DNA of 64,000 bases from Fidelibacterota bacterium (GCA_042564205.1 JBHPLN010000001.1:13626-77625); one strand, 5' to 3'; numbered from the stretch's first letter, positions 26,931 through 50,724 are shown. The notes: generated by a model not told the origin, from the sequence alone. Translations and numbers: made by a program.

Positions 26931-26960
26931 TTTATTACTATACTATGATTAACACTGTAT

Positions 26961-31934: not shown

Positions 31935-32058
31935 ATCAATCCCATTTTTTCAACGGCTTCCTGTTCCTAATTGGGTATAAGAAAGGTGTAGAAAAGTGTC
32001 TCTAAAACCCTTGGTACACTCAAATTAGTCCGTTTGTTTTGGGACGCGTTTTTGGGAC
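31935..32058 (+). repeat. Intergenic element E4
   Basis: Near-identical to the E3 core apart from a 6-nt deletion: ATCAATCCCATTTTTTCAACGGCTTCCTGTTCCTAATTGGGTATAAGAAAGGTGTAGAAAAGTGTCTCTAAAACCCTTGGTACACTCAAATTAGTCCGTTTGTTTTGGGACGCGTTTTTGGGAC. Confidence 0.9.
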
Positions 32059-32100
32059 TCAAAGGCTATACTAATTGTATTTTAATCGCCAAGCATCTAT

Positions 32101-33321: not shown

Positions 33322-33586
33322 GTTTTCCCCCTTAGTAAATTATGTTTATAATTTTGCACTATACATTTTATCGCAATTACTATACCAACGCCCAGTGAGT
33401 TTTTTTGATTACAACACATCCTGATATTAATATTAACTTTATGTTCTATTCTTCAATTATAAGAATGGAGCATATTCATATCATATTGATATAATATGCA
33501 TATCATTAATACCCTACAAATATTAGAATAGAGTGAACTTCAATATGACCGGCTATCGTTTGGACAACTTTTTAAGTAAGTATATT

Positions 33587-33676
33587 CTGGTTCTAATTGG
33601 GTATAAGAACGTTGTTAGGGGTGTCTCTAAAAACACCGTTTTGGGGACACTCTAATTCGCCTGTTTGTTTTGGGAC
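33587..33676 (+). repeat. Intergenic element E5 (lacks the last GTTTTTGGGA motif)
   Basis: CTGGTTCTAATTGGGTATAAGAACGTTGTTAGGGGTGTCTCTAAAAACACCGTTTTGGGGACACTCTAATTCGCCTGTTTGTTTTGGGAC. An extra CGTTTGGAC motif lies at 33557-33565. Confidence 0.8.
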
Positions 33677-33814
33677 TTGATTGCTACACTGGCAATAATT
33701 CTTTGGGTAAAATAATAGTTGGTAATTGTGTAGATTGAATTTTGATAACAAAATATATCAATATAATATGACCATCAACAATTCTATATAAATGTTAGTT
33801 AAGTGGAGCGACAA

Positions 33815-34204
33815 ATGAGAAAACAATATCATTTCAGACCATCAGAGAAGGGTATCCTCATTTGGGATGTTCAACGATTGGTGAAACTAACTAAGAACCT
33901 TCCTACCAAGAAAGTGGAACTGGAAGCCATTCGTGAATTGGACGAACCATTCTGGTTTGGAAACGAAAAATCCGTTCCTACTTGCCGAGTAATAGCAGAA
34001 CACGTAAAACTAATCGAAGAATCTGATTTGATGCATCCAGTTATTCTATCGCGCGATGGACGGATAATGGATGGTATGCACCGTGTTGTAAAAGCATTGT
34101 TGAAAGGTCATAAACAGATAAAGGCTATTCAATTTACAAAAGATCCTAAACCTGATTACATAGACGTTGACTCTGCTGATTTACCCTACGATTCACCCGC
34201 CTAA
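33815..34204 (+). CDS. Small ParB-like nuclease/sulfiredoxin-fold domain protein
   Basis: PVILSRDGRIMDGMHRVVKAL matches the ParB N-terminal DG..R box. Start taken at ATG 33815 (GGAG 7 nt upstream). The track start is GTG 33803. Confidence 0.45.
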   Translation: MRKQYHFRPSEKGILIWDVQRLVKLTKNLPTKKVELEAIRELDEPFWFGNEKSVPTCRVIAEHVKLIEESDLMHPVILSRDGRIMDGMHRVVKALLKGHKQIKAIQFTKDPKPDYIDVDSADLPYDSPA

Positions 34205-34238
34205 CAAGTGCCTAGAGCAGTCAGGAACAGCAAAGACT

Positions 34239-34613
34239 CTAGCTAAATAGCCAATCCTTGGCATCATCTTTATTAGTAAATAATGAAATGTTAAGACCCC
34301 TGTTATGTGCAACAGTAGATAAAAATTTTACTAGTTCAGTAGTTTTCTCGGAAACAATAAAAGCCATTCGACCACTACGGATTGTATCCAAACCTGCCGT
34401 ATCAACACCTAAATTATACACTCCAGTTAATGAGGGTAAATATTTAATAGGAGTTGTATCGACAAGGACTTTATTACAATTATTTTCTTTTAATAATTTT
34501 TCAACTTCATTGTTCGTCTTATTCATTGTTTCAGGTGTTGGGCGCTCCAAACTCACCACAGATATATATTTATTTCCAAGATGCTCTTTAAGATTAATCC
34601 TTTTAACTGCCAT
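34239..34613 (-). CDS. STAS/SpoIIAA-like small protein (tentative)
   Basis: 124 aa immediately downstream of a PP2C phosphatase gene. The layout ..KVLVDTTPIKYLPSLTG.. resembles the STAS phospho-serine loop. Weak, context-driven call. Confidence 0.3.
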   Translation of the reverse strand: MAVKRINLKEHLGNKYISVVSLERPTPETMNKTNNEVEKLLKENNCNKVLVDTTPIKYLPSLTGVYNLGVDTAGLDTIRSGRMAFIVSEKTTELVKFLSTVAHNRGLNISLFTNKDDAKDWLFS

Positions 34614-34668
34614 ATAAAAACTTACATTATTTACTATAGGAATTCCACGCTTACAAAAAATTAAATTC

Positions 34669-36171
34669 CTATCGGGTTGGATTTAATTTGCAAATAACAG
34701 AAGTTATATCGTCTTCTTGGCGTAGATTTTTAGAATAAGATCGAATTCCCTTATAAAGAAGCTCTACAATTTGTTGAGCGGATTTTTGTTGCTGGCTATT
34801 AATAATAGCAAGAGCTCGTTCAAATCCAAATTCTTTTCCGCCAGGTGTAGATGCTTCCATTACTCCATCTGTAAAAAATGCCGCTACGTTTTCTGTGGTT
34901 AATTTGATTGGATCACTATTTTTTATCTTGTAGTCTTTCGTAAAACCTAATGGAAATCCTGTACTCTCCATTGTATGATCAACATGACCAGAGTGGTTTA
35001 GTAAAAAAGCTGGTACATGACCGGCACTGGCATAAATAAGTGAATGATTTTTAGGATCAAGTATAGCCAATATTAGTGTTATAAACTGATCAGACTGAAG
35101 ATCAACAATAAGTTCATTATTAAGTCTGGTAAGAATCGCTGCTGGATTGCTATCCATTTTTGTAAATGCACGTAAAAATGCTCGTACTTCTGCCATAATA
35201 AGTGCTGCGCCAATGCCATGACCAATTACGTCGCCAACAACAATAGCGATATCTCCGTCTGGCATCTTAATAAAATCAAAATAATCACCACCAGTTCCAT
35301 CTGCTGGATATGCTGCTCCCGCAATGTCATATCCAGGTACAGAAATCGCTGTATTGTAATACATTTGTTGTATTTTACGTGCTACAGTTAGTTGTAACTC
35401 AAGTTCTTGTTTTATTCTTGCCTCAGTTACGTCTTTTAATACTGATACATAACTAGTCATATTTCCATTATGATCTTTTAGTGGTGAAATGCTTTGATCA
35501 GACCAATATAATTCACCATCTTTCTTTTTATTGATGATTGTTCCACGATAGGGCTTTCCACTGGTGATTGTTTCCCACAGATTTTTATAAAATGCTTTAT
35601 TATGTTTACCGGAGTTAAGAATGCGTGGTGTTTTGCCTAGGACTTCATCACGCTTGTAGCCGGAAGTCACCTCAAAAGCCGGGTTTACATACTCAATTAC
35701 ACCTTTTAAATCAGTAATAACTATACTATCCGCCGTTTGTTCTACACCGCTTTTAAAGCGCTCTAATCCATCTTGTTTGTTCCTAATCTCATTGATGTCT
35801 CGAAAGATAATTATACCACCGTAGATTTTACCCTTTTCATCCCTAAGAGGGCTAGCTGAGATACTAATCCATACCCCTTCCGTTCTTTCGAGATTCTTTA
35901 TAAAAACATGTTCATCAATAACCCCTTCACCCCTTATAGCGCGAGCTAATGGCAGTTGTCCGGAGGGATACGGAGTAGTACGGTCCACTTTGTAGCAACC
36001 ATATACTGTTGACCAATTTGATTGTGTAATGTCTCTAGATCCCATTCCCAGAATTTTCGCTGCTGCTGGATTAAAAAACATAAATTCGCCCTTCACATTG
36101 GCAACGATGACTCCGTCTGTAAGACTGTTTAAAACCGCCTCAAGCGATTCTTTTGTATCAATAAATGTCAA
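34669..36171 (-). CDS. PAS-PAS-PP2C (SpoIIE/RsbU-type) serine phosphatase
   Basis: Two PAS blocks (..GVIVANVKGEF.. and SIVITDLKGVIEYVNPAFE..GY...E..G). C-terminal PP2C motifs (GGDYFD, VVGDVIGHG, FTDG..E). Confidence 0.85.
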   Translation of the reverse strand: MTFIDTKESLEAVLNSLTDGVIVANVKGEFMFFNPAAAKILGMGSRDITQSNWSTVYGCYKVDRTTPYPSGQLPLARAIRGEGVIDEHVFIKNLERTEGVWISISASPLRDEKGKIYGGIIIFRDINEIRNKQDGLERFKSGVEQTADSIVITDLKGVIEYVNPAFEVTSGYKRDEVLGKTPRILNSGKHNKAFYKNLWETITSGKPYRGTIINKKKDGELYWSDQSISPLKDHNGNMTSYVSVLKDVTEARIKQELELQLTVARKIQQMYYNTAISVPGYDIAGAAYPADGTGGDYFDFIKMPDGDIAIVVGDVIGHGIGAALIMAEVRAFLRAFTKMDSNPAAILTRLNNELIVDLQSDQFITLILAILDPKNHSLIYASAGHVPAFLLNHSGHVDHTMESTGFPLGFTKDYKIKNSDPIKLTTENVAAFFTDGVMEASTPGGKEFGFERALAIINSQQQKSAQQIVELLYKGIRSYSKNLRQEDDITSVICKLNPTR

Positions 36172-36400
36172 TTTAATTTGTTCCTTATGCGATAGCTCAC
36201 AATAATTAAAGAGATAATATGAATATTATTAGAATTGATAATAAACCGTAACGTCGAGTAATAATCATGAAACCTCCTTTAATTTGCCTGCTGAATAAGT
36301 AATTTAAAAAATATCGCTTTAAATATAATGAGAATCATTATATTTAAAAACAGTAAAATGAAATTCTACAGATTGTGTGGTTAGTAGATACTATAAACCA

Positions 36401-36527
36401 ATCATGTTTTTTCACCGGTTTTCTTGCTTCAATTTGGGTATAAGAATAGTAATTCAAGGAGTCTCTAAAACCACCGTTTTTGGTACACTCAATTTAGGCC
36501 GGTTGTTTTGGGATACGTTTTTGGGAG
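36401..36527 (+). repeat. Intergenic element E6
   Basis: ATCATGTTTTTTCACCGGTTTTCTTGCTTCAATTTGGGTATAAGAATAGTAATTCAAGGAGTCTCTAAAACCACCGTTTTTGGTACACTCAATTTAGGCCGGTTGTTTTGGGATACGTTTTTGGGAG. Confidence 0.9.
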
Positions 36528-36609
36528 AAATGAGCTGTAGTGATCTATGAATAGTTCTGTCGGTTTGATAATAATTTTCAGTCATCATTTTTTCCCTCTT
36601 TAGAATTAG

Positions 36610-37242
36610 TTATATTGTTACAGATAGCGCTAACAACCATTGTGCTGTAAAATACGTTGAGAGTATTATAAGCTCAGCACTTCGAAACTGTTTCCTAAAC
36701 TTGTTCATGGCTAATACAGAATCCGAAATCATAAATAGTACAGCACCTATTGCAGCAAATAGTGCTCCAATTGCCCGATGACTTTTCAAGCCTTCCAACG
36801 CCATCCAACCCATAATAGCTATAATAATAACGTATATAATAATTAGTATAGTTGCTTTACCGGAATATGGTATAATATTTTTTAAATAAATTATTCCGAT
36901 AACTATAATTGGTAAATATATCCATACTGTATAATATATTCCTGTTGATAAAGCAAAAGCTCCTATATAGCAAATATGTCCAATTAGAAATGCAATTAGA
37001 CCTTTTTTGAAATGTTTTTTAGGAAAAATTAAGAAACCATCACCAACTAGGGAAAAAAGCAAGCCTAATAATATTAGTTGTTGATATTTTGGGTTTGTTG
37101 TAGGCCAAATAAATATAATAGATATTATAATGATAAGGGTGAGGGGCTTAAATATCAAAAACTGTGTATTTAATATTTTATACTTTGCACGTATGCACAA
37201 AATACCCGATAAAAAGGCTAATATAGAAAGAAGATAAATCAT
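36610..37242 (-). CDS. YhhN-family membrane protein (lysoplasmalogenase-like)
   Basis: 210 aa with about 7 TM helices and the YhhN-type motif LLFSLVGDGFLI. Confidence 0.7.
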   Translation of the reverse strand: MIYLLSILAFLSGILCIRAKYKILNTQFLIFKPLTLIIIISIIFIWPTTNPKYQQLILLGLLFSLVGDGFLIFPKKHFKKGLIAFLIGHICYIGAFALSTGIYYTVWIYLPIIVIGIIYLKNIIPYSGKATILIIIYVIIIAIMGWMALEGLKSHRAIGALFAAIGAVLFMISDSVLAMNKFRKQFRSAELIILSTYFTAQWLLALSVTI

Positions 37243-37327
37243 AAAATCTATAATGATTTGAAAGATTTTATTAATAATTGTCTATTACCATACAGCAATA
37301 TTATTAATTATGTTTATTTGAAATAAG

Positions 37328-37358
37328 TCCCAAACCCCGTCGTTTTTGGTGCTAAAAT
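37328..37358 (+). repeat. Element fragment E7 (inverted plus direct motif pair)
   Basis: GTCCCAAACCCCGTCGTTTTTGGTGCTAAAAT has the same architecture as the E2 core (TCCCAAAACCCTACGTTTTTGGCAC) and is truncated after the first motif. Confidence 0.45.
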
Positions 37359-37363
37359 ATAGG

Positions 37364-37450
37364 AACAGAGCAAAAAAGGGCACAGCGCAAAAAAAGTGTG
37401 CTCCAACTGTGCTACACTTTTGTCCACTACTGACCACTTCTGTCACTTTA
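37364..37450 (+). repeat. Direct repeat A (pairs with 42589-42684)
   Basis: The first 51 nt (AACAGAGCAAAAAAGGGCACAGCGCAAAAAAAGTGTGCTCCAACTGTGCTA) match B at 46/51 positions by hand alignment. A looser match follows (..CCACTTCTGTCACTTTA vs ..CCATTTCTGTCCATTTA). Confidence 0.75.
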
Positions 37451-37749
37451 GATTTTAGAATTTTAGGCGTTATTTTTGCTGCATGAAGGTGGGATTCCTT
37501 AATCTGCTTCTTGGCTAGTGACTTTGGGCTCATTCATTAGCACTTTTTAATTGATTAATCTATCCAAAATCTCTCTAACTTGTTATAACGAGTTACATTT
37601 CATCAAGTGATTAAATCTATTTTGACGATTTTAGACTAATGTAAATTATTGCGATATTTGCTATGTATATTTTAATTTGTGAGAGTATAATAAATTATTT
37701 TTTAGCGATGCTTAAGTGGTCCAATAATTAAATACGAGGACAGAAAACT

Positions 37750-40700
37750 ATGAAAAATAGTGATGAAACTCAGATATTAGGAGCGCTTGCACTGTCTTTT
37801 GGTCAGGCTTGTATCAATTCTAATTTTCTTTTTGGTGAAGAAACCGATTTTCTGCAACAAATTAAAGCTGATAAATGGTATCCCCTGGAAAAGGTCTTTA
37901 ATATCTTTAATATTATAGAAGAAAAATATTCTAATCCTGTGCCCATTTACGAGCAAATAGGTATTGAAATGATGACCCTTTGGTACTCTCAGGGTCCGGG
38001 GAAACAGTTTATTAAAAAGGGAGTTGATTTTTTACACTTTCAAACCAGTTCTGAGGGATTTTACAGTGTTATTAAGGGAAAGCCAAATCAAATAGGTGAT
38101 TTTTCGTTACTGAATCTGGATAGAGAGAAAGGAACCGCAATTGTTAAAAGTACAACTCCTTTTAATCGAGATTTGGAACGAGGTGTCTTGATTGGTGGCA
38201 TGGGAATAACAAAAGATTTGCTTTACATTAGTGTTGATAATTCAAAAGATGAAAACATTTTCCATATTCAGTTTAGAGATTCTCAACATGTTCAAATAGA
38301 CAGTAAAAATTCACTTAAATTACCTACGAACATGGATTTGTACACACTGTATTGGAAAAATAAGATGCTTAAAAATAAGTTTAAACGTCACTCCTCTTTC
38401 TGGAATTCAACAAATAAAACATCAACTCTGGCATTTGAAAAATTGAGAAAACAAGATCATGAGCTTCGAAAGCGTGCTGAAGATCTCTCTCGAATAAATG
38501 CTAGATTAGCCCAAGAAATTAATGAGCGGAAACGGATTGAAAACGCATTGCGAAATTCTGAAGCATTGTATCAGTCGCTTGTTGATAATTTACCTCAATT
38601 TATTTTTCGAAAAGATATAAATGGTAAGTATACATTTTTGAGTAAAAACTTTGGTTTAAATAAAGGAAAACCTACAGAAACTTATATTGGTAAAACAGAT
38701 TATGATATCTATCCACGAAAATTAGCAAAAAAATTTCAGGAATCTGATCAACAAATTATTAAAACCAGAAAAATCCTAAATTCTGTAGATATTCAAAAAA
38801 GTCCGGATGGGCTTAATATCTATACTCAAGTTATTAAAATACCAATTTACGATGCAAAAAACCGCCTTGTTGGTATACAGGGAATATTTTGGGATATATC
38901 TGAGCACAAACGCATTGAAGAAGCTTTGCGGGTATCAGAAGCAGAGTTGCGGGCTTTATTTGCAGGAATGCCCGATGTGGTCATTATGTTAGATGACACT
39001 GGGCGTTATCTCAAAATAGCGCCAACTTCTCCAGAGCTCCTTTTTCAACCCGAGGATAAGCTGATAGGAAAAAGTTTACATGATATATTTCCTAAGGAGC
39101 AAGCCGATTTATTTCTGAAGTCTATTCATCAAAGCCTTGAAACACAGGAGCTTGTAAATCTAGAGTATAGCTTAGACATCGAAGAAACCGAACTTTGGTT
39201 TAGGGGGTGTATTTCCCCTATGTCGAAAAACTCGGTCGTTTTCGTCGCTCGCGATATTACAGAACGCAAGCGAGCGGAAGAGACACTGCGGAAGAGTGAA
39301 GAGAAACACAGGATTATCTTTGAGAATGCAAATGAAATAATTATAATTGCGCAAGATGGCAGAGTTGCATTCGCAAACCCTGCTCTTGAAAAGATTCTGG
39401 GCTATCCTATTGACGATGTAATATCAAGACCTTTTACTGATTTCATTCATCCAGATGACCGTGGACTGGTTTTTGAACGATACAAAAAAAGAATGGCTGG
39501 TGAAGATGTCGAGACAGGTTATCAATTTAGACTTGTCACTGTATCTGGTGAAGAAAGATGGGTTATGATCAATTCGAGCGTGTTAGAATGGGAAGGTAAC
39601 GCTTCGACCCTTAACTTTTTAACTGACATCACTGATCGTATTCGAGCAGAAGAAGAGGTAATAAAAGCTAAAGAACAAGCTGAATCAGCCAATCAAGCAA
39701 AAAGTATTTTTTTGGCCAATATGAGTCACGAATTGCGAACCCCCCTAAATAGTATTTTAGGCTATACTCAAATTCTAAAACGGGATAAAAATTTAAAAAA
39801 ACAGCAAAAAAATGGCATTGATACGATTCACCAGAGTAGTGAACATCTATTGAACCTAATAAATGAGTTGCTCGACCTTTCAAGGATTGAAGCGCAAAAA
39901 ATGGAGTTGGAACTTTCTGATGTATATTTTCCAGGATTTCTGAAAAAAATCACAGAAATTGCCCATTTCCAGGCTCAACAGAAAGGCGTTTCGTTTGATT
40001 CTGAAATTGCTACCGATTTACCTGCTGGCGTTCGTATAGATGAAAAACGCGTGCATCAAGTTCTGCTAAACTTAATCAATAATGCCATAAAATTTGCTGG
40101 ATCTGGAAGTGTAACTTTTAGAGCAAACATTAATTCGTTATCTGTAAATGAGAATAAACAGACAACTGTACACATCCATTTTGAAGTTGAAGATACAGGA
40201 GTTGGTATTTCATCCGATGAGATAGATAAAATCTTTTTACCGTTTCATCAAGTACACAAGACAAAGCTTACAACTGAGGGAACTGGTTTAGGGCTCCCAA
40301 TTAGTAGCAATTTACTCCAAATAATGGACAGTAAATTGAATGTCAAAAGCACTGAGGGAGAAGGAGCAACTTTCTGGTTTGATCTTGAAGTACCTCTAAT
40401 TGAAAGCATTACCAACGGTGAAGAATTCAGTACAGTTGAACAATCTCGTAATATTATCGGTTTCAAAGGAGACAAACGAAAACTTTTACTTGTAGATGAT
40501 AATAAAACAAATCGCGCTGTTTTAAGAGATATGTTATTGCCATTAGGCTTTGAAATCGCAATAGCAAAAGATGGGAGGGAAGCACTTGATAGGGCTGCTG
40601 AATTTCATCCCGATATTATTTTAATGGATTTGATAATGCCGGTCATGGATGGGATTGAAGCAACAAAACGAATTCGCAAGAACCCTGCTCTTAAGGATAT

Positions 40701-41112
40701 CATTGTAATAGGTATTTCAGCCAGTGCTTTTAATACTACTAAACAAACTAGCTTTAGAGCGGGTTGTAATGATTTTCTTACTAAACCCATCCATATTGAA
40801 AAATTATTTGAGTGTTTAAAGCAGTATTTAAAGCTCAAATGGGTCTATGAGGAATCAGCCATGTCTGGTTCGGGGGAAAAGGAAGACTCTGAAACATTAC
40901 TGATGGTTATTCCTCCTAAAGAAGACTTGGAAACCTTACTGAGATATAGTGAAATCAATCATATTACTGGTATGCATCGATCACTGGAAAATATAAAAAA
41001 AACGGACGAACAGTACATTCCTTTTGTTACTAAAATTGAAGATCTCGTAGACAACTTACAATTCAAACGTATCATTAAAACAATTCAATCATATCTTGAA
41101 AAAAGGATCTGA
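37750..41112 (+). CDS. Cytoplasmic hybrid sensor histidine kinase: unknown N-terminal domain, coiled coil, PAS repeats, HisKA, HATPase_c, receiver, C-terminal extension
   Basis: No TM segment. Repeated PAS blocks end in ..ISEHKR.., ..ITERKRAEE.., ..ITDRIRAEEE. H-box SHELRTPLN, N/G boxes, then a receiver (LLLVDDN..DIILMDLIMP..KP). Confidence 0.9.
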   Translation: MKNSDETQILGALALSFGQACINSNFLFGEETDFLQQIKADKWYPLEKVFNIFNIIEEKYSNPVPIYEQIGIEMMTLWYSQGPGKQFIKKGVDFLHFQTSSEGFYSVIKGKPNQIGDFSLLNLDREKGTAIVKSTTPFNRDLERGVLIGGMGITKDLLYISVDNSKDENIFHIQFRDSQHVQIDSKNSLKLPTNMDLYTLYWKNKMLKNKFKRHSSFWNSTNKTSTLAFEKLRKQDHELRKRAEDLSRINARLAQEINERKRIENALRNSEALYQSLVDNLPQFIFRKDINGKYTFLSKNFGLNKGKPTETYIGKTDYDIYPRKLAKKFQESDQQIIKTRKILNSVDIQKSPDGLNIYTQVIKIPIYDAKNRLVGIQGIFWDISEHKRIEEALRVSEAELRALFAGMPDVVIMLDDTGRYLKIAPTSPELLFQPEDKLIGKSLHDIFPKEQADLFLKSIHQSLETQELVNLEYSLDIEETELWFRGCISPMSKNSVVFVARDITERKRAEETLRKSEEKHRIIFENANEIIIIAQDGRVAFANPALEKILGYPIDDVISRPFTDFIHPDDRGLVFERYKKRMAGEDVETGYQFRLVTVSGEERWVMINSSVLEWEGNASTLNFLTDITDRIRAEEEVIKAKEQAESANQAKSIFLANMSHELRTPLNSILGYTQILKRDKNLKKQQKNGIDTIHQSSEHLLNLINELLDLSRIEAQKMELELSDVYFPGFLKKITEIAHFQAQQKGVSFDSEIATDLPAGVRIDEKRVHQVLLNLINNAIKFAGSGSVTFRANINSLSVNENKQTTVHIHFEVEDTGVGISSDEIDKIFLPFHQVHKTKLTTEGTGLGLPISSNLLQIMDSKLNVKSTEGEGATFWFDLEVPLIESITNGEEFSTVEQSRNIIGFKGDKRKLLLVDDNKTNRAVLRDMLLPLGFEIAIAKDGREALDRAAEFHPDIILMDLIMPVMDGIEATKRIRKNPALKDIIVIGISASAFNTTKQTSFRAGCNDFLTKPIHIEKLFECLKQYLKLKWVYEESAMSGSGEKEDSETLLMVIPPKEDLETLLRYSEINHITGMHRSLENIKKTDEQYIPFVTKIEDLVDNLQFKRIIKTIQSYLEKRI

Positions 41113-42257
41113 TGATGTCGAAATCATTAAAAAATAAGACAATCTTAGCTGTTGACGATAAGCTTGAGAATTTAAAGGTCTTAATAGCTTATTTGGAAAG
41201 CAGTGGTTTTGAGATCATGGTCGCACAAAGCGGAGAAGAGGCTTTCCAACATATTGAGCACGTTATCCCTGATATAATTCTATTAGATATACTTATGCCT
41301 GGTATTGATGGTTTTGAAATCTGTCGCCGTTTGAAGACAAACGATATCACCAAGGAAATTCCAGTAATTTTTATGACAGCTCTGATAGATACAGCTGATA
41401 AAGTAAAAGGTTTTGAAGTCGGTGCTGTTGATTATCTTACTAAGCCTCTGCAACATGAGGAGGTTTTAGCTCGTGTGAATGCTCATATGACCATTCGGGA
41501 ATTACAACAACAACTCCAGGAAAGAAACGTCTTATTGCAGCATAAAAACACCCAGCTAATGGAAGTAAATGCAACTAAAAATAAATTCTTCTCGATTATC
41601 GCACATGACCTAAAGAATCCTCTTAATACATTACTGACATATAGTATGACTCTAGTAGAAAATTTTGAAAAACTCGATACAGAAAAGATAATAAAAGGGA
41701 TTGAAGCACTTAATAGAAGCGCAACCCGTGCTTATGATCTTTTAATCGATTTACTCAACTGGGCTCGTTCACACTCCGGAAAGATGGAATATAAACTTGA
41801 AGAAATAGACCTCGGCCAAATTGCTAAAGAAAATATTGAGTTACTTCTTGATCGGGCGACTGAAAAAGGTATCCGAATATCCTCAGAGATAAACGAAGGT
41901 TTACTAGCATATTCAGATAAAAATATGGTTTCTACTGTGCTGCGAAATTTATTAACCAACGCCGTAAAGTTCACATCAAAAAATGGAAACGTTACGTTAA
42001 GCAGTGAAGTAGGAAAGAATAGTCTGACAATAACAGTCCGTGATACAGGAATTGGTATTACTGAAGAGAACATAAATAAATTGTTCAGACTTGATACATT
42101 TTATCGCACATTAGGATCAGATAATGAGAAAGGCACCGGGCTGGGACTTCTTTTATGTAAAGAGTTTATCAACACACTGAATGGTGAAATTTGGGTAGAA
42201 AGTGAGATAGGAAAAGGAAGCTGTTTTATTTTCACGTTACCTACGCAAGCCACATAA
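41112..42257 (+). CDS. Response-regulator receiver fused to histidine kinase core (REC-HisKA-HATPase_c)
   Basis: The start overlaps the upstream stop (TGATG). Receiver motifs (ILAVDD, ILLDILMPG, LTKP), H-box AHDLKNPLN, G boxes DTGIGI and GTGLGL. Confidence 0.9.
   Translation: MMSKSLKNKTILAVDDKLENLKVLIAYLESSGFEIMVAQSGEEAFQHIEHVIPDIILLDILMPGIDGFEICRRLKTNDITKEIPVIFMTALIDTADKVKGFEVGAVDYLTKPLQHEEVLARVNAHMTIRELQQQLQERNVLLQHKNTQLMEVNATKNKFFSIIAHDLKNPLNTLLTYSMTLVENFEKLDTEKIIKGIEALNRSATRAYDLLIDLLNWARSHSGKMEYKLEEIDLGQIAKENIELLLDRATEKGIRISSEINEGLLAYSDKNMVSTVLRNLLTNAVKFTSKNGNVTLSSEVGKNSLTITVRDTGIGITEENINKLFRLDTFYRTLGSDNEKGTGLGLLLCKEFINTLNGEIWVESEIGKGSCFIFTLPTQAT
41124..41212 (+). repeat. 89-bp segment duplicated at 42316-42404
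   Basis: Identical except for one G/T difference (GCTGTTGACG vs GCTTTTGACG). Covers codons 5-34 of the REC-HK gene. Confidence 0.95.
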
Positions 42258-42303
42258 AATAAAGTTACTGGTGGACTAAACTTTATCTGTATAAGGTAAA
42301 GCT

Positions 42304-42423
42304 ATGAATTCAGAGTCATTAAAAAATAAGACAATCTTAGCTTTTGACGATAAGCTTGAGAATTTAAAGGTCTTAATAGCTTATTTGGAAAGCAGTGGTT
42401 TTGAATGGTCTCAAAGCTTCTAG
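42304..42423 (+). pseudogene. Duplicated 5' fragment of the REC-HK gene (39-codon chimeric ORF)
   Basis: MNSESLKNKTILAFDDKLENLKVLIAYLESSGFEWSQSF*. Residues 5-34 duplicate 41124-41212, and the homology stops abruptly at 42404. Confidence 0.8.
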
Positions 42424-42509
42424 GTCACAGCACAGTAAAAACTACGGAGAAATACTATGCGGATTATAAAGATGACAACTATCGATCAGCTACTAAACTA
42501 CTTGAATAA
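42405..42509 (+). pseudogene. Tyrosine recombinase (phage integrase family) C-terminal remnant
   Basis: ..VSKLLGHSTVKTTEKYYADYKDD..* is the conserved LLGHS..-TT..Y tail carrying the catalytic Tyr. Only about 34 codons remain, preceded in frame by a stop, and its own terminator follows. Confidence 0.65.
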
Positions 42510-42532
42510 AAAATAATCAACATCGCTATTAA

Positions 42533-42565
42533 AAGAGATCCAATCATGTTGGATCTCTTTTTTTA
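42533..42565 (+). terminator. Rho-independent terminator
   Basis: AAGAGATCCAA-tcatg-TTGGATCTCTT followed by a T-run. Confidence 0.75.
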
Positions 42566-42588
42566 TATAAAATTATCTCAATTCCCAT

Positions 42589-42684
42589 AACAGAGCCAAA
42601 AAGAACAGAGCGCAAAAAAAGTGTGCTACAACTGTGCTATTTTTTTTCCATTTATGGGTATTTGTGGCCATTTCTGTCCATTTA
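42589..42684 (+). repeat. Direct repeat B (pairs with 37364-37450)
   Basis: AACAGAGCCAAAAAGAACAGAGCGCAAAAAAAGTGTGCTACAACTGTGCTA.. See repeat A. Lies between the integrase-remnant terminator and the tRNA-Val 3' end. Confidence 0.75.
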
Positions 42685-42759
42685 CAAAAAGTCTAAATAT
42701 GATACCCAAAAATACAAATCCCCGACGACAAATACTATTTACCGATGAGGATTATTCTG

Positions 42760-42833
42760 TGGGCGATACCCGGCTTGAACGGGTGGCCTCTGCCGTGTGA
42801 AGACAGCGCTCTGACCAGCTGAGCTAATCGCCC
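42760..42833 (-). tRNA. tRNA-Val (anticodon CAC)
   Basis: Hand-folded cloverleaf. Acceptor GGGCGAT/ATCGCCC, D stem GCTC/GAGC, anticodon stem CTGTC/GGCAG with loop TTCACAC, T stem ACCCG/CGGGT with loop TTCAAGC, discriminator A. 74 nt, CCA not encoded. Confidence 0.9.
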
Positions 42834-42908
42834 TTTATTTATTAAAATTATTGTGAAGGAGCAATAAGACCGGCAAATTTACTGGCACTTAAATCACGAA
42901 ACAAATGC

Positions 42909-43226
42909 ATGAATCCAAGTGAATCAAAATTAAAACTAGATAATTACGAGATCGTTAACAATCTTTTGCTACTCCAGTGGAATGATGGTGACGAGAGTGC
43001 AATATCGTTGCAAACACTGCGGGATAAATGTCCCTGTGCAGGTTGCGCTGGTGAGCAGGATATTTTTGGGAATGTTTATAAGGCTCCGCCGCAGGAAAAA
43101 ACACAAGCGAGTTACATCCTCATGCGCTTTGACCCGATTGGGCATTATGCATTTAAACCCGTATGGGGTGATGGACATTCATCAGGTTTATTCACACTTG
43201 AAGCGCTAAAAAAAATGACTGTCTGA
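42909..43226 (+). CDS. DUF971 domain protein (gamma-butyrobetaine hydroxylase N-terminal-like zinc-binding domain)
   Basis: 105 aa with L.LQW.DG.ES.....LR..CPCA.C..E and ..W.DGH.SG.F motifs. Confidence 0.7.
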   Translation: MNPSESKLKLDNYEIVNNLLLLQWNDGDESAISLQTLRDKCPCAGCAGEQDIFGNVYKAPPQEKTQASYILMRFDPIGHYAFKPVWGDGHSSGLFTLEALKKMTV

Positions 43227-43308
43227 ACACATAAATTATTTAAACTATTAACCCTAATCACATTAAACTCTCCAATTCATAAAATATATTTATTGAGGAA
43301 CTGAATAA

Positions 43309-44154
43309 ATGGAAACGCTAATCGCCTGGTGGCAGCATTTACCCAGTAAAATGGATCCGGTTATTTTTACCATCGGAAGTTTTCCTATTCGTTGGTACGC
43401 AACCATGTACTTGGTAGCATTTGCTATAACCTATCTTTTGGCAAAATATCGAATTCGTAATGAAAAATTACCTTTTGATACCGAATTCTTAAGCAGCATG
43501 ATTACCTGGTGCATTCTGGGATTGCTTCTTGGGGGCCGCATTGGCTATGTGTTATTTTATAACTTTGAATGGTTTTTACAGGAACCTTTGAGCATTATCC
43601 TGCCCTTCTCAAAAATTAGCGGTTCGTGGCAGTTTACCGGATTTCGGGGAATGTCTTATCACGGTGGCGTAATTGGTGTAACTGTTGCATTATTTATATT
43701 CAGCCGCAAGCAAAAACAAGATTTCTTCAAGCTTGGCGATCTTATCATCACCGGAATTCCACTGGGTTTCACATTTGGCCGGATTGGCAACTTTATTAAT
43801 ACCGAGCTGTATGGCCGTGTAACCGAAGCGTCAATCGGTATGCACTTCCCCAGCGCTCCTGGTAGCTCCCTGCGCCACCCGTCCCAATTATATGAAGCAT
43901 TTTTTGAAGGGATTATCCTTTTCCTTATTATCTGGCCCCTAAGAAAAAAGAAGATTTTCACGGGATTTGTCTCAGGATTATATATCTTTGGATATGGTTT
44001 CTTTCGATTTTTCATAGAATTTTTTCGCGAACCCGATGAGCATCTAGGATTCGTCTTTATGAATTTATCCATGGGACAAATGCTTTGTATAGCAATGATG
44101 ATCGCAGCTTTTGTCTTGTGGTATTTTGCACGAAAAGTTCCGGAATCAAACTAA
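43309..44154 (+). CDS. lgt: Prolipoprotein diacylglyceryl transferase
   Basis: IRWYA..Y, HGG.IG and GRIGNFIN.ELYGR signature. 281-aa membrane protein. Confidence 0.9.
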   Translation: METLIAWWQHLPSKMDPVIFTIGSFPIRWYATMYLVAFAITYLLAKYRIRNEKLPFDTEFLSSMITWCILGLLLGGRIGYVLFYNFEWFLQEPLSIILPFSKISGSWQFTGFRGMSYHGGVIGVTVALFIFSRKQKQDFFKLGDLIITGIPLGFTFGRIGNFINTELYGRVTEASIGMHFPSAPGSSLRHPSQLYEAFFEGIILFLIIWPLRKKKIFTGFVSGLYIFGYGFFRFFIEFFREPDEHLGFVFMNLSMGQMLCIAMMIAAFVLWYFARKVPESN

Positions 44155-44167
44155 TTCTCTTATTTAT

Positions 44168-44899
44168 ATGAATAGTGAAATCCTATTCGTATTAAAAAAT
44201 ATATCCGTTCGAAGAAAAGCCCTTTCGATTCTTAAAAACGTTTCATTGACTGTAAACAACCAAGAATTCCTGGCGATCCTTGGACCGTCCGGTGCTGGAA
44301 AATCTACCCTTTTAAGATTGTTGAACGGTCTCGACTCACCTACTTCCGGCTCAGTTACTTACGCCGCACAACCTTTTCAGAATCACAATATTGTGAAATT
44401 ACGTGAGGAGATTGGAATTGTGTTTCAAAATCCAGTTATGGTTTTTGGGTCAGTACGTGAAAATCTGAAATTATCTGAGCGTTGGAAGAAACATACTGAA
44501 CCAATCCACGATGATAAGCTCGTTGAAGCATTGCAATCTGTTGATCTTTCTCCCAATCTCCTTGACAAGGATGCGCGATCATTGTCAGGCGGAGAAAAAC
44601 AACGTATCGCCCTAGCTCGTGTTTTACTCAATGAACCGCGCGTGCTCCTTTTAGATGAGCTTACTGCTAATCTTGATCCAAATTTGGCGCGCTATATCAT
44701 GCAAACGATTTATCACCTATACGAAAAATTAAACCTGACAATTATTATTGTGTCGCATGATCATAAACTGGTGCAACAATTCATTAGTCGTGTGGCATTC
44801 TTAATAGAGGGTAAACTGGTTGAAGAAGGCTCACCAGAATTACTGATCAAATCAAACACACCCCAGGTACAGAATTTTCTAACAGGAACACCAAAATGA
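44168..44899 (+). CDS. ABC transporter ATP-binding protein (FetA/YbbL-like)
   Basis: Walker A GPSGAGKST, signature LSGGEKQR, Walker B LLLDE. Start set to ATG 44168 to avoid overlap with lgt. The track start is 44111. Confidence 0.8.
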   Translation: MNSEILFVLKNISVRRKALSILKNVSLTVNNQEFLAILGPSGAGKSTLLRLLNGLDSPTSGSVTYAAQPFQNHNIVKLREEIGIVFQNPVMVFGSVRENLKLSERWKKHTEPIHDDKLVEALQSVDLSPNLLDKDARSLSGGEKQRIALARVLLNEPRVLLLDELTANLDPNLARYIMQTIYHLYEKLNLTIIIVSHDHKLVQQFISRVAFLIEGKLVEEGSPELLIKSNTPQVQNFLTGTPK

Positions 44900-45696
44900 C
44901 ACAGACCTTTTACGCCATCACTTGGACTGATGTCCTAGTTTCTTTAATTCTTGTGGCATTCTGTATTGTTCTAATTCGCTGGTGGAAAATCGGTCTTGAA
45001 AAAACACTAATAATTGGTACACTCCGAACATTTATACAGCTTTCAATGATGGGCTATGTTCTAACCTTTTTCTTTACACAGCAACACTGGTTATTTATGA
45101 CTGGACTGGTAACCTTGATGATCTTAATTGCTGGTTTTGAAGGTTATCGCCGTTTACGCGATTTTAAAATTCCAAATATATTTCTAATTCTCACTGGTGC
45201 TTTATTCATCGCTGTTATTTTAGTACTGGGTATAATTCTTAATGTTATCTTGACGGTAGAGCCCTGGTATTATCCGTATGCTATGATACCAATTGCCGGA
45301 ATGATTATCGGAAATGCACTGAATACAACAACGCTCACAGTAAATCGCTTTGTCGGAGAATTAGAGCATCGCGAACAAGAAATCGAGACCCTGCTTTCAC
45401 TCGGCTCGCCGGCACGGATTGCTGTACAGCCCTGCATTCGTGAATCAATCAAAGCGGCCTTACTACCAATTGTAAACTCGATGATGATGGTGGGATTGGT
45501 ACAGCTCCCGGGAGTAATGACGGGTCAGATTCTTGCTGGGATTGACCCAATGATCGCAGTGCGCTATCAAATAATGATTATGTATATGTGGGTCACTTCC
45601 GCAACCTTAACCAACATCATAGTGATCGCCATCGTGGCACGACAATATTTTACACCATTACACCAACTGAAAAGAACGCTGCTTCGTACAGATTAG
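44896..45696 (+). CDS. ABC transporter permease, UPF0014 (FetB/YbbM-like)
   Basis: 266-aa polytopic protein translationally coupled (ATGA) to the ATPase. Size and pairing are typical of FetAB/YbbLM. Confidence 0.7.
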   Translation: MTQTFYAITWTDVLVSLILVAFCIVLIRWWKIGLEKTLIIGTLRTFIQLSMMGYVLTFFFTQQHWLFMTGLVTLMILIAGFEGYRRLRDFKIPNIFLILTGALFIAVILVLGIILNVILTVEPWYYPYAMIPIAGMIIGNALNTTTLTVNRFVGELEHREQEIETLLSLGSPARIAVQPCIRESIKAALLPIVNSMMMVGLVQLPGVMTGQILAGIDPMIAVRYQIMIMYMWVTSATLTNIIVIAIVARQYFTPLHQLKRTLLRTD

Positions 45697-46154
45697 TTAA
45701 TCTTAAAATCTCTAAAACCCAGTTGTCGCCATGCTTCATAAGCTACAACTGATACTGCGTTGGCTAAATTCAAACTCCTTTCAGTGGTCAACATTGGGAT
45801 TGTTACCATCGGAAATTGCTCTAAAATATTATCCGGTAACCCTCTTGTTTCAGGACCGAATAACAACACATCATTTAGTCGGTAGGATACATCCGTATAT
45901 AACGTGCTGCCTTTGGTAGTAATTGCATATACAGATTGATGGATCGTCGTAACTAAAAAATCTTCCAATGATGCATGAACTTTAAGTTGGACTTGATTAT
46001 GATAGTCCAAGCCCGCCCGTTTCAATTGACGATCATCAATGGAAAATCCTAATGGTTCAATCAGATGTAGTTCGCAGCCGGTATTAACCGCTAACCGAAT
46101 TATGTTACCAGTATTTGGCGGTATCTCCGGTTCATAAAGCGCAATCTTTATCAT
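45693..46154 (-). CDS. trmL: tRNA (cytidine/uridine-2'-O-)-methyltransferase, SpoU/TrmH family
   Basis: 153 aa with YEP.IP.NTGNI.R and LLFG.E..GLP motifs of TrmL/YibK. Confidence 0.8.
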   Translation of the reverse strand: MIKIALYEPEIPPNTGNIIRLAVNTGCELHLIEPLGFSIDDRQLKRAGLDYHNQVQLKVHASLEDFLVTTIHQSVYAITTKGSTLYTDVSYRLNDVLLFGPETRGLPDNILEQFPMVTIPMLTTERSLNLANAVSVVAYEAWRQLGFRDFKIN

Positions 46155-46177
46155 CTATAGCGTGGTGCGATTGCTTA

Positions 46178-46930
46178 TTACTGGGGCTTGACCTTTGCCT
46201 GATCGGCTACGGCCTGCATCGCTGCTTTAACTTTTTCCTGGTCCCCCAGATAGTAGTGCTTTAACGGCTTCAACTCATTATCCAGTTCGTAAACCAATGG
46301 AATTCCCGTTGGAATATTGAGCCTTACTATATCATCGTCTGAAACATCATCAAGATACTTAACTAATGCTCGCAATGAATTTCCGTGGGCGCAGATCAAG
46401 ACTTTTTTACCAGACTTAATAACTGGTGCAATTGTTTCAAGCCAGTAGGGCAAAAAGCGATTGACTGTGTCTTTCAAGCATTCGGCCAATGGAATGTCCT
46501 TCGGATCTAAATTCTTATATCTAGGATCGTGGCCTGGATAACGTTTATCATCTCTGGTCAGTGCTGGTGGTGGTGTATCGTAACTGCGACGCCAGATCAA
46601 TACCTGTTCATCCCCGTATTTTTCAGCTGTTTCAGCTTTATTCAAACCCTGCAAGGCTCCATAATGCCGTTCGTTCAAACGCCAATGGCGATGCACGGGT
46701 ATCCACTGTAGATCCATCTCGTCCATGACTAACCATAAGGTGCGAATAGCACGAATCTGAACTGAGGTATAAGCAACATCAAATGTATATTTGTCTTCCT
46801 TCAGTAACTGACCGGACTGGATCCCTTCTCGAATACCTTTATCACTAAGATCTACTTCGGTCCAGCCGGTAAATCGATTTGCCAGGTTCCAGTGACTTTC
46901 ACCGTGGCGTAATAAAACTAGTTTAGTCAT
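46178..46930 (-). CDS. gpmA: 2,3-bisphosphoglycerate-dependent phosphoglycerate mutase
   Basis: [20 protein letters not shown] catalytic His motif, ERHYG and AHGNSLRAL. Confidence 0.9.
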
Positions 46931-47133
46931 TTATTATGTCCTGTTTCATACAGATAATTACACCGAAATTTTATTCATAAGAGATTTTGATTGCAACAGG
47001 CACATTCAAATAGTTTTAGCGGTGGATTAGTTGACATCTTTCATAATTAAATTTGGGTCATAATATTAAGTCTTTAATAAATATTTTAATCTAGAAGTAT
47101 CATTTTAAGATCAAACCAATATTGAGGATAATA

Positions 47134-48657
47134 ATGCCGAGATTTAAACAATTGAATGTTTACCGTCTAGTACTAGTTATTTTTTCTATCGCTACAGTAG
47201 CCGCTTGCAGTACCGGTGTAAATGAACTGGTTGAGTTTTTGGATAGGAAAGAAATCATTTATGAAGATATTAGTATTCAAATGGGTACTGCTTATTGGAA
47301 CCTATACTCCGATGAAGCAAGTGCTGAACTTGATGCACCCAAACAACGCTATGTTGATTTATTCACCAATGATACGCTTAACGACCTGGTTGATGAATGG
47401 TATAAAAAACGGTATACGATTAAAGATCCAGTTACTAAACGGCGAGTGGAACTCTGGCATAATATTCTGACTGCGGCTAAGGTAAACTATGCAGAAGAAA
47501 ATCTAAAACTCCAGAGTGAACTGGAATTCTGGCTGGCTGAAGATGACAGTGTCGAAGGGATGCCTTCACCAGATGAAATGAAAGCTATGGTTATCAAACT
47601 GATGCGCTTGCGGAATGAAAAAGCACGCACATTGGGTTATGATAATTATGGAGAATTAATTCTGGCTGTATCGGAAATTGGATCGGACTGGCTGGAAGAC
47701 TTTACCGAAACAATGGCAAAGCGAACGTTAGAACCCTACAAAAAATTAATTAATGAAATCAAGACTACCGAAAATAAAACTGAGGTTAATTACACCGATG
47801 TCCGTTCACTGTTGATAAAATACTATACCAATCAAATTACACCTGATGCAACTGGCGATTCCCTTATAACAGTTATGAAAATGATAACAGGCAATATTGG
47901 TATTAATTACGATGACTTACCGGTTCGATTTGTTGAAAATGAAATGCCGCCTGGAGTTGGTGGGCAGGGAATAGCCGTTCAGATCCCAAATGACTTTCGG
48001 ATTGCACTGCTCCCCAATTTGGGACTTGATACCTGGATGCATGAATTGGGGCATGGTTTGCAGGCTATGCATACCACTATTGAATCTCCCATTCTAAAAG
48101 AATATGAATGGAGTTTGGGCAGTGGCTGCGGAGGGTATGCCGAGGGAATGGCTGAAGTGTCGGCCCGATTTGCAAGAAATCCGGAATGGGTAAAACGCCT
48201 AACCACAATGTCGGAAGTTGAAATACAGGAAAAAATTGACAATGCTAATTTATATCTTACAGCCTATTTTAGAATCTTACTGCCTACAATAATTTTTGAG
48301 GTTGAATTTTATAAGAATCTTGATCAAGACCCGGATGATCTGCGGCGTCAATTAACCCAGCAATACCTATTACTGGATAGCCCCCCCGAGCGGGTCAGAT
48401 CAATTGTCGACATGATCTATGTTTCTTATCCCCTCTATATTCAGAACTACATGATCGCGGAAATTGTGTCTTGGCAAGTTCATACAGTGCTGGAAGAAAA
48501 ATTCGGAAAAGAATATGTATTCAATCCTGAAGTCGGTGATTTTCTCAAAGAATATTTTTACAAAGATGGCGAATTATACCCCTGGCAGACACGCCTAAAA
48601 AAGGCCACTGGAAAAGAACTTGACTTGGATAGTTATCTGACCAATCTTGGAATATAA
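47134..48657 (+). CDS. HEXXH zinc metallopeptidase (gluzincin, M3/M2-like), lipoprotein
   Basis: Lipobox VAACS. WMHELGHGLQ (HEXXH) with a downstream Glu-containing segment (GGYAEGMAE). ATG 47134 preferred over TTG 47122. Family assignment is tentative. Confidence 0.6.
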   Translation: MPRFKQLNVYRLVLVIFSIATVAACSTGVNELVEFLDRKEIIYEDISIQMGTAYWNLYSDEASAELDAPKQRYVDLFTNDTLNDLVDEWYKKRYTIKDPVTKRRVELWHNILTAAKVNYAEENLKLQSELEFWLAEDDSVEGMPSPDEMKAMVIKLMRLRNEKARTLGYDNYGELILAVSEIGSDWLEDFTETMAKRTLEPYKKLINEIKTTENKTEVNYTDVRSLLIKYYTNQITPDATGDSLITVMKMITGNIGINYDDLPVRFVENEMPPGVGGQGIAVQIPNDFRIALLPNLGLDTWMHELGHGLQAMHTTIESPILKEYEWSLGSGCGGYAEGMAEVSARFARNPEWVKRLTTMSEVEIQEKIDNANLYLTAYFRILLPTIIFEVEFYKNLDQDPDDLRRQLTQQYLLLDSPPERVRSIVDMIYVSYPLYIQNYMIAEIVSWQVHTVLEEKFGKEYVFNPEVGDFLKEYFYKDGELYPWQTRLKKATGKELDLDSYLTNLGI

Positions 48658-48693
48658 TTTTAATACTGTTTAATAATTAATCATATTAACAAA

Positions 48694-48724
48694 AGACGGG
48701 CGCAGGTTGAGCCCGTCTTTGTTT
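48694..48724 (+). terminator. Rho-independent terminator
   Basis: AGACGGGC-gcaggttga-GCCCGTCT followed by TTTGTTT. Confidence 0.75.
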
Positions 48725-48765
48725 AATCAAAAATGCTTGCCTTCAATAAGAATATACCGTAATAT

Positions 48766-48786
48766 ACTTACGAGTAACTTACGAGT
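48766..48786 (+). promoter_or_regulatory. Tandem direct repeat ACTTACGAGT x2 (11-bp period) directly upstream of lexA; candidate LexA operator
   Basis: ACTTACGAGTA-ACTTACGAGT ends 5 nt before the lexA ATG. This gives TTAC-N7-TTAC, the same geometry as the GTTC-N7-GTTC direct-repeat LexA boxes of some phyla. Confidence 0.35.
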
Positions 48787-48791
48787 TTCGT

Positions 48792-49397: not shown

Positions 49398-49400
49398 GTT

Positions 49401-50570: not shown

Positions 50571-50621
50571 TCAGTTTTAGAACATTTATGTTAAGCATTG
50601 AACTTCAACAACCATATCTAA

Positions 50622-50700
50622 ATCTTCCTCCGGGAGGACCTTTCACCCCCCTGGCTTATCCACGACTTCAATCCTCATTGCCTCCCGGAGCCGGGAAGAT
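50622..50700 (+). other. Interrupted long inverted repeat between imuB and dnaE2
   Basis: ATCTTCC-TCCGGGAGG (50622-50637) can pair with CCTCCCGGA-gccgg-GAAGAT (50681-50700), giving 6 + 9 bp around a 43-nt insert. Confidence 0.4.
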
Positions 50701-50724
50701 TTAGGAACATTACATACAACACGA

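Follow-up and report, generated by a model that had tools for sequence, protein, structure and literature searches.

We analysed a 64,000-nucleotide stretch of the genome of a Fidelibacterota bacterium (GCA_042564205.1 JBHPLN010000001.1:13626-77625; referred to below as the window, with positions counted from its first letter) and focused on the segment at 37328-42833, where a kinase operon lies next to a tRNA-Val(CAC) gene. The best overall explanation, to which we assign a probability of about 0.75, is that this segment ends in an attR-type relic of an integrative element (att, attachment site), that the integrase gene of the element was lost by a deletion into the third gene of the kinase operon, and that two similar repeats, A and B, are repeats of the element's att arms, with A as a recombination product. 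An earlier reading of the sequence alone (the first-pass annotation) had already proposed a decayed integrative element at tRNA-Val. This is supported by the integrase tail, its terminator, the conserved arm and the tRNA 3' half described below. Loci from other genomes and metagenomes are designated by L and a number.

The junction at tRNA-Val(CAC)

The junction contains the following features.

42759-42833, minus strand: tRNA-Val(CAC), found by ARAGORN; the sole tRNA detected in the window
about 42759-42806, minus strand: 3' part of tRNA-Val, probably element-derived (alignment with L050 and L003)
42807-42833, minus strand: 5' part of tRNA-Val, chromosomal
42685-42758, plus strand: spacer from the P arm to the tRNA 3' end, within the element-borne att region (alignment)
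42531-42561, plus strand: intrinsic terminator of the former integrase gene (14-pair stem and T-run)
42405-42509, plus strand: last 34 codons of a tyrosine integrase, a pseudogene remnant whose open reading frame (ORF) reads MVSKLLGHSTVKTTEKYYADYKDDNYRSATKLLE
42304-42404, plus strand: first 33-34 codons of a third operon gene, encoding a receiver (REC) domain protein that starts with MNSESLKN (collinearity with L046, L048 and L057)

The tRNA gene was compared with that of L050, a close relative whose Lgt is 92% identical and which is collinear with the window over 42758-54181. In the alignment, the 5' halves of the two tRNA-Val genes are identical and every T-stem pair is different, the T-arm differences being compensatory changes. 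The T-stem version in the window resembles the element core of L003, and the homology between tRNA and element core starts at the anticodon stem. To the left of its tRNA, L050 has a different trailer, without spacer, arm or integrase (172 nt of flank are visible). Its homology to the window begins at 42758, and the spacer at 42685-42758, which is missing in L050, aligns with L001, L002, L003, L018 and L029. This contrast is what replacement of the tRNA 3' half by an incoming element would predict. The first-pass annotation had put the tRNA 3' end at 42760; the gene is indeed present, with its end 1 nt away from that position. The comparison of the tRNA-Val locus among relatives that it had proposed shows the locus in both states, without arm and integrase in L050 and with an intact or less decayed integrase in L025, L029 and L001. 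In a more distant relative (L051:1-5068), tRNA-Val(CAC) is flanked by phage-like genes (Amidase_2, Metallophos), and the short repeats beside it differ from the arms described here, ATGGGTAC occurring twice. As illustrated by L051, tRNA-Val is a hotspot for unrelated elements too.

The 34-codon tail and its terminator had been recognised in the first pass. The tail aligns to residues 315-348 of an intact 349-amino-acid PF00589 integrase in L025. This integrase also has a SAM-like domain, and after its gene come an excisionase-like HTH_17 gene and small hypothetical genes. The terminator is conserved in L001, and the order of integrase 3' end, terminator, arm, spacer and tRNA-Val is common to the window, L001, L025 and L029. 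Across loci, the integrase occurs in a series of nested 5' truncations (residues 1-349, 77-349, 254-348 and 315-348), and wherever it is present, it lies immediately upstream of PL, the integrase-proximal part of the arm. The integrase of L029 (909-1781) is without its first 76 residues and is fused instead to MENYMLIGYVRVSTSDQNLDLQ, which we take to read like the N-terminus of a serine recombinase or resolvase. In the L025 integrase, an extra N-terminal region precedes the SAM-like and catalytic domains; residues 1-75 gave no Pfam match to an Arm-DNA-binding domain at E<0.01. NCBIfam and PDB searches yielded no family-specific name, returning only generic Xer/integrase similarity below cut-offs. 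Among the viral contigs of IMG/VR, the pattern of the 22-mer described below had 0 matches and the L025 integrase had one weak match (37% identity), which indicates that IMG/VR viruses do not include the family. Genes for conjugation or mobilisation were seen in no family member.

Upstream of the integrase tail, the sequence at 42304-42404 is 94% identical over 101 nt to 41112-41212, the start of the second operon gene, which encodes a REC-domain histidine kinase (REC-HK; repeat search). The first-pass annotation had taken this for a duplicated piece of the REC-HK gene that replaced the integrase. Relatives contradict that interpretation. The window is collinear with L046 1-1380 over 41024-42404 (85.6% identity) and with L048 over 39646-42405 (79% identity), and these alignments pass the REC-HK stop, the intergenic spacer and some 100 nt of the next gene to end exactly at 42404. 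L057 (91% identical) is collinear with 40704-42404 and has the same gene start, MNSESLKN, in an intact gene that goes on with SGFEIMVAQSGEEAFQ. The next genes in L046 and L048 encode a REC-SpoIIE phosphatase and/or a REC-sigma54 activator, whose N-terminal REC domains are near-identical paralogues of that of REC-HK. This collinearity identifies 42304-42404 as what is left of a separate third operon gene and not as a REC-HK duplicate; it looked like a duplication because the REC N-termini in the operon are near-identical. The same collinearity indicates that a deletion reaching into a neighbouring gene removed the integrase. The first-pass annotation was right about the breakpoint at 42404/42405, which L005 confirms (see below), but not about a duplication replacing the integrase.

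The stump is cut by the deletion, with a reading frame that continues to a stop at 42423, and the junction joins codon 34 of the third gene to codon 315 of the integrase, out of frame. The motif ATGGTC is shared near the junction and the join lies 4 nt away, so that a microhomology-mediated deletion is only partly supported. For annotation, the 39-codon and 34-codon ORFs at the junction are pseudogene stumps, and the kinase operon of this lineage is left without its downstream effector gene. As the REC paralogues are so similar and two sister-strain metagenome contigs break near these repeats, the junction might be suspected to be a mis-assembly from near-identical REC 5' ends. However, L005, a contig from another metagenome assembly that is 99.06% identical to 42372-48551, spans 42404/42405, passing from 33 nt of REC gene sequence into the integrase tail. 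The presence of the junction in an independent contig that is about 1% different argues that it is not an assembly artefact. In addition, the join does not lie at the edge of the repeat similarity, as REC sequence meets unrelated integrase sequence there, and we regard mis-assembly as highly improbable.

Repeats A and B and the att-arm family

The two repeats are composed as follows.

42588-42617, plus strand: left part of repeat B (PL), on the integrase-proximal side, ACAGAGC-A(n)-G twice (arm comparison)
42618-42639, plus strand: conserved 22-mer of repeat B, AAAGTGTGCTACAACTGTGCTA, TGTGCTA twice, 11 nt apart (motif scan)
42640-42684, plus strand: right part of repeat B (PR), a T-rich start and then TGKCCA-like units every 10 nt, putative arm-type sites
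37364-37392, plus strand: left part of repeat A, PL type (arm comparison)
37393-37414, plus strand: 22-mer of repeat A, one mismatch to B, a strain-level recombination breakpoint
37415-37496, plus strand: right part of repeat A, P'-type 10-nt units (CACTTTTGTCCACTACTGACCACTTCTGTCAC) and a spacer-like tail, with no tRNA core after it (hidden Markov models, HMMs)

Over 58 nt, A (37364-37421) shares 86% identity with B (42589-42646), and the 30-mer common to both had 0 matches in 100 shuffles. The sub-repeats of the core, ACAGMGC-A(n)-G twice and TGTGCT-N5-TGTGCT once, can be read directly. The first-pass annotation had described both the direct repeats and their sub-repeats, and it was also right that neither A nor B is a classical att duplication derived from the tRNA: they are instead arm repeats of the att region.

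Public genomes and metagenomes were scanned for the repeat core, which gave 4 and 40 loci, respectively (metagenome L006-L045). About 45 related loci from genomes and metagenomes contain the 22-mer AAAGTGTGCYNCAACTGTGCTA, in 55 copies altogether, its conservation being inflated by its use as the search pattern. In class P (about 15 copies, including B), PL, the 22-mer, PR and a spacer are followed by the 3' end of a full tRNA or of a tRNA 3' fragment, and the 22-mer lies 119-143 nt from this 3' end. In class P' (30 copies), the tRNA sequence comes first, as a 3' half that ends in the anticodon loop, and is followed by a short linker (P'L), the 22-mer and CACTTCTGTCCATTACTGTCCACTTGTGTCCA (P'R). 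L018 and L046 contain a contiguous P-spacer-core-P', an attP-like arrangement in which the two arms carry the 22-mer as direct repeats about 220 nt apart. Ahead of several P' copies stands the native tRNA trailer that is also seen in the arm-free L050 (IRX0 motif ~90 nt from the core), as expected of an attL. The same arms are common to three core types, namely tRNA-Val CAC, tRNA-Val TAC and probably tRNA-Lys TTT. In L010, L019 and L035, the core upstream of the P' arm resembles the anticodon stem-loop of tRNA-Lys(TTT), and the element family appears to target at least three tRNAs with the same arms. These comparisons suggest that A and B are att-arm repeats of a tRNA-Val/Lys-specific integrative element family, in which, by analogy with known att sites, the 22-mer and the phased units are most likely arm-type binding sites.

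The first-pass annotation had allowed for the case that A and B are a common intergenic repeat, and had suggested a search for further copies and their flanks. A and B do belong to a multi-copy family, and a truly generic intergenic repeat, IR-X, abuts A. However, just two copies occur in the window, most of the 55 copies lie next to, and at a fixed distance from, either a complete tRNA or a 3' fragment of tRNA-Val/Lys, the integrase, if present, is always directly upstream of PL, and the shared 30-mer is absent from shuffled sequence. This largely refutes a generic genome-wide repeat, and a chance likeness unrelated to integration is likewise very hard to credit.

B is a normal, intact integrase-proximal arm, to which the P-arm HMM assigns 124 bits over 42585-42767. 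At A, the P-arm HMM match extends to 37496, and the P' HMM gives 57.7 bits for A versus 29.7 for B, the right half of A having the P'-discriminating CAC start and units. A decayed tRNA core downstream of A (37500-37560) was considered and rejected, as the match consists of the TGGGC pentamer only (direct reading, HMM). Since A lacks a tRNA core and has a left half of the integrase-proximal type, it is not an attL. Both reciprocal arm hybrids occur among the loci: the A type (PL-22-P'R) in L004, L032 and, roughly, L027, and the reverse in L020 and L021. L054 and L005 come from one sample, and L054 shares 99.1% identity with window 33445-37449. L054 is identical to the window through the IR-X half copy, PL and the 22-mer, and then has a classical P-type right half and spacer, after which the contig ends. 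This switch right after the 22-mer marks the 22-mer as a recent recombination breakpoint between strains.

The similarities described above suggest the following history. A tyrosine-integrase element would have entered the anticodon-loop region of tRNA-Val(CAC), of which 42405-42833 would be the attR-type right junction. The element would have supplied a replacement tRNA 3' half and, inward of it, the spacer, the arm (PL, 22-mer and 10-nt-phased TGTCCA-like units), the terminator and the integrase gene. A later illegitimate deletion, from codon 34 of the third operon gene to codon 314 of the integrase, would have killed the element. The likeness of A and B would stem from the presence of the same 22-mer and phased units on both attP arms, in direct orientation, with the tRNA-derived core between them. 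A, with PL on the left, P' on the right and no core, would be the product of 22-mer x 22-mer recombination at an attP-like junction between tandemly accreted elements, from which the core was deleted, and in the 99%-identical strain (L054) the P-type right half would have escaped this recombination. A is read most simply as an attP-like junction whose core was lost through a deletion from one 22-mer to the other. The kinase operon would now lie between two arm relics, which does not imply that it arrived as cargo.

About 14 of the 40 metagenome contigs (L006-L045) end <=150 nt from the 22-mer, and contigs of the sister strain are interrupted at A as well as at the REC paralogue; the arm repeats may explain metagenome assembly breaks at these sites. 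The att architecture (arms, 22-mer and core) offers a practical signature for flexible regions in metagenome-assembled genomes of Neomarinimicrobiota. Elsewhere in the window, 22445-22486 gave a weak arm-like match, GCCATTAATGTACGCTTCTGTCA (E about 0.1-0.3 with both arm HMMs), which resembles the P'R units of L035 and L027 and may be a very decayed relic or chance.

The kinase operon and its low-GC surroundings

Two intact genes of the operon lie between A and the stump of the third gene.

37750-41112, plus strand: operon gene 1, PAS-HisKA-HATPase-REC hybrid kinase, 1120 amino acids (Pfam)
41112-42257, plus strand: operon gene 2, REC-HisKA-HATPase kinase (REC-HK), 381 amino acids (Pfam)

An orthologue of the hybrid kinase precedes REC-HK in L047, and the gene is also covered by DNA alignments with relatives. 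REC-HK orthologues are 76-100% identical, the 100% match being NCBI cluster P0001 (Candidatus Neomarinimicrobiota), the group to which the genome of the window belongs; an exact look-up of the window REC-HK and YhhN proteins returned no record. In L047, L048/L049, L046 and L057, a histidine kinase (HK) or other kinase gene and REC-HK are followed by a REC-sigma54 activator and/or a REC-SpoIIE gene. This shared gene order, in relatives whose HK-REC-HK operon is 76-91% identical, suggests that HK, REC-HK and a REC effector form a lineage-typical operon of Neomarinimicrobiota. Within single genomes, the REC starts of consecutive operon genes (REC-HK, REC-sigma54 activator and REC-SpoIIE) have 80-94% nucleotide identity (window 41112-41212 and 42304-42404; L046 92-520 and 1297-1727; L048 from 8599, 9788 and 12338), which points to a receiver module that was either recently duplicated in tandem or subject to gene conversion. 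A circular permutation between the window and L046, a single-amplified genome (SAG), via beta-lactamase genes was rejected, as there is no tblastx match between these genes.

To the left of A, the window contains copies of IR-X, a ~90-nt intergenic repeat with three CGTTTTTGG-like motifs.

37328-37363, plus strand: IR-X half copy abutting A (repeat comparison; same junction in L004)
36438-36533, plus strand: IR-X copy just 3' of YhhN (nhmmer)
33601-33685, plus strand: IR-X copy (nhmmer)
31975-32064, plus strand: IR-X copy (nhmmer)
30425-30516, plus strand: IR-X copy (nhmmer)
26848-26934, plus strand: IR-X copy (nhmmer)

The five full copies in the window, all intergenic and on the plus strand, lie at 26.8-36.5 kb, no more than 10.6 kb to the left of A. 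In the full set of fetched loci, the orientation of IR-X equals that of the local 22-mer in 50/50 copies, up to 13 kb apart. The density of IR-X is 50 per 261 kb in loci with the 22-mer, versus 1 per 99 kb elsewhere (about 19x). IR-X showed no conserved RNA fold and no attC-like hairpin (alignment consensus -0.88 kcal/mol, no covariation). Rfam returned nothing relevant for the whole window or around A, and neither IR-X nor the arms correspond to a known RNA family; the gathering-threshold run on the window gave no family of any kind and missed even the tRNA-Val that ARAGORN finds, probably owing to the search set-up and not to the sequence. An IR-X copy just 3' of YhhN is also found in L055:763 (minus strand), beside a 69%-identical orthologue and with a different next gene; IR-X may travel with the YhhN gene or mark a synteny break.

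The guanine and cytosine (GC) content is about 0.36 over 9-42.8 kb, versus 0.40-0.48 on either side, and decayed elements that have accreted there probably make up the low-GC region to the left of tRNA-Val. Further signalling genes in this zone encode a PAS/GAF histidine kinase (930 amino acids) with a stand-alone receiver (124 amino acids) at 23457-26635 and a PAS-SpoIIE phosphatase (500 amino acids) at 34669-36171. On the other side of the tRNA, at 48792-54433, genes for a LexA-like repressor, a Y-family polymerase (IMS), a PHP/DNA_pol3_alpha protein and an SRAP-domain protein stand in a row (domains taken from the annotation of the collinear L050), a block that looks like an SOS mutagenesis (ImuB/DnaE2-type) cassette.

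Alternative readings and known systems

Several points weigh against the proposed history. No displaced tRNA-Val fragment (the attL core) was found in the window by pattern search with 3 mismatches, blastn-short or profile HMM; it could be outside the window or deleted, and as it is missing, the left end of the element cannot be placed. The history is rebuilt from relics, arm-site function and the anticodon-loop crossover are read from patterns in the sequence, and L054 beyond A ends at the contig edge. The kinase operon lies exactly between A and B, and in SAG L046 (86%), the closest long-contig relative, the operon is found 6.5 kb upstream of P-spacer-core-P' in the same orientation; both placements fit arrival of the operon as cargo equally well. 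The strain breakpoint at the 22-mer could also mean that the 22-mer is itself a recombinase target. If the integrase cut the 22-mer and not the anticodon loop, PL-22-P'R would be of attP type and P'L-22-PR an attB-type scar. In agreement with this, the sequences of the two 99%-identical strains part exactly where the 22-mer ends on its 3' side, both reciprocal hybrids are found, and in both arms the 22-mer is better conserved than any other block, although as the search pattern it owes part of this to the search. Tyrosine-recombinase cores are inverted repeats around a 6-8 bp overlap, whereas the 22-mer is a direct repeat without such an inverted repeat. Furthermore, the tRNA/core homology stops precisely at the anticodon stem in all copies, three different tRNA cores occur with the same arms, and the replaced T-arm of the window fits a crossover in the anticodon region. 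Cleavage at the 22-mer is therefore unlikely in our view, and we prefer integration at the anticodon loop.

The placement of the operon admits a further reading, in which the whole A-B segment (37364-42758) is one decayed island resembling a cis-mobilisable element (CIME), with a two-kinase cargo, A as its left (P') and B as its right (P) end, and an integrase lost by internal deletion. The right half of A is of the P' type that normally begins an element, and by the logic of tandem arrays the stretch from a P' to the next P is one element. The operon of L046 is similarly placed, the genes that flank the operon differ in every relative examined, and GC is low throughout the A-B segment. However, A is without a tRNA core and its left half is of P type, hence it is not an attL. 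The operons of L047 and L048/L049 (76-79% identity) have no tRNA, 22-mer, IR-X, att relic or mobility gene in their visible flanks of up to 10 kb. Inter-relic segments elsewhere hold unrelated ordinary genes, so that a place between relics is no proof of co-mobility, and the sole intact element seen (L025) carries small hypothetical genes and no signalling operon. The cargo status of the two kinases, as claimed in the first pass, is thus unproven. Their arrival with such an island is possible though rather doubtful, and we rate a native operon, truncated by decay of the adjacent element, somewhat above it. A broader and improbable scenario is that the 22-mer arms and IR-X are boundary sites of a tRNA-Val/Lys-anchored cassette-accretion platform in Neomarinimicrobiota. 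The family integrase, acting in trans, may then insert, rearrange and delete short integrase-less segments with their own att/IR-X ends, such as the YhhN segment and the kinase operon, and the switch between L054 and the window at the 22-mer of A may be a trace of this activity. If true, the platform would be functionally integron-like and built on a tRNA-derived core. As an alternative to an accretion array, IR-X may be a strand-polar intergenic repeat.

Among known systems, the likeness to integrons is superficial only, consisting of a tyrosine recombinase and co-oriented repeats between short gene segments. With the integron-integrase model, the integrase scored 43 bits versus a cut-off of 265, and no attI or Pc promoter was identified. 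An integron was rejected on account of this score and of the missing attC-like hairpin in IR-X. Like lambda-type attP sites, the att regions of L018 and L046 have short motifs on both arms around a core, phased at about 10-11 nt, and the extra N-terminal region of the L025 integrase is a further likeness. Unlike in lambda-type sites, both arms carry an unusually long identical block of 22 nt in direct orientation, which evidently supports secondary deletions that remove the core.

For Dehalococcoides, a horizontally acquired genomic island is described at the single-copy ssrA (tmRNA) gene, with site-specific mobilisation as common in the genus (PMC3146451). The locus is similar in being an island at a small-RNA gene, and it differs in target gene, integrase family and phylum. 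The ssrA islands of Dehalococcoides reportedly form tandem arrays with repeated target-gene fragments.

CIMEs are integrase-less segments, bounded by att-derived repeats, that pile up next to a target gene (PMC5704250). In such accretion with integrative and conjugative (ICE) or mobilisable (IME) elements, newcomers enter the regenerated target and older relics are pushed outward, as for ICESt1/ICESt3 of Streptococcus thermophilus (PMC5704250). Like a CIME, the A-B segment holds an integrase stump only and no excisionase or transfer genes. Unlike in a CIME, for which both attL and attR are needed, B and the tRNA form an attR-type end and the core-less A is not an attL.

The closest likeness is to tDNA islands, that is, islands in tRNA genes, for which the Islander database recognises an anticodon-centred class (PMC4383910). 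As in these islands, an integrase adjoins a regenerated tRNA, the element gives the tRNA 3' part from the anticodon region on, and related loci have displaced 3' fragments and tandem arrays. Among the features used to recognise Islander-type islands, the window has a regenerated, intact tRNA at one end (tRNA-Val, with a T-stem unlike that of L050), and relatives have both an unoccupied site (L050) and elements that are intact (L025) or nearly intact (L029). An intact integrase is absent, as no further copy of the family integrase was found in the window. Unlike in typical tDNA islands, the window integrase is reduced to 34 codons and the displaced fragment is missing from the window. The classes of tDNA island sublocation are said to go back to Williams 2002. 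In the literature, we found no description of such islands in this uncultured marine phylum of the Fibrobacterota-Chlorobiota-Bacteroidota (FCB) group. Strict membership fails in three ways, as there is no integrase gene, no displaced tRNA fragment and, A being core-less, no CIME. From the comparisons made here, the locus would nevertheless best be described as a decayed anticodon-class tDNA island within a probable accretion zone. The decay of tDNA islands is well-known biology that leaves an ordinary genomic scar, seen here in a little-studied phylum.

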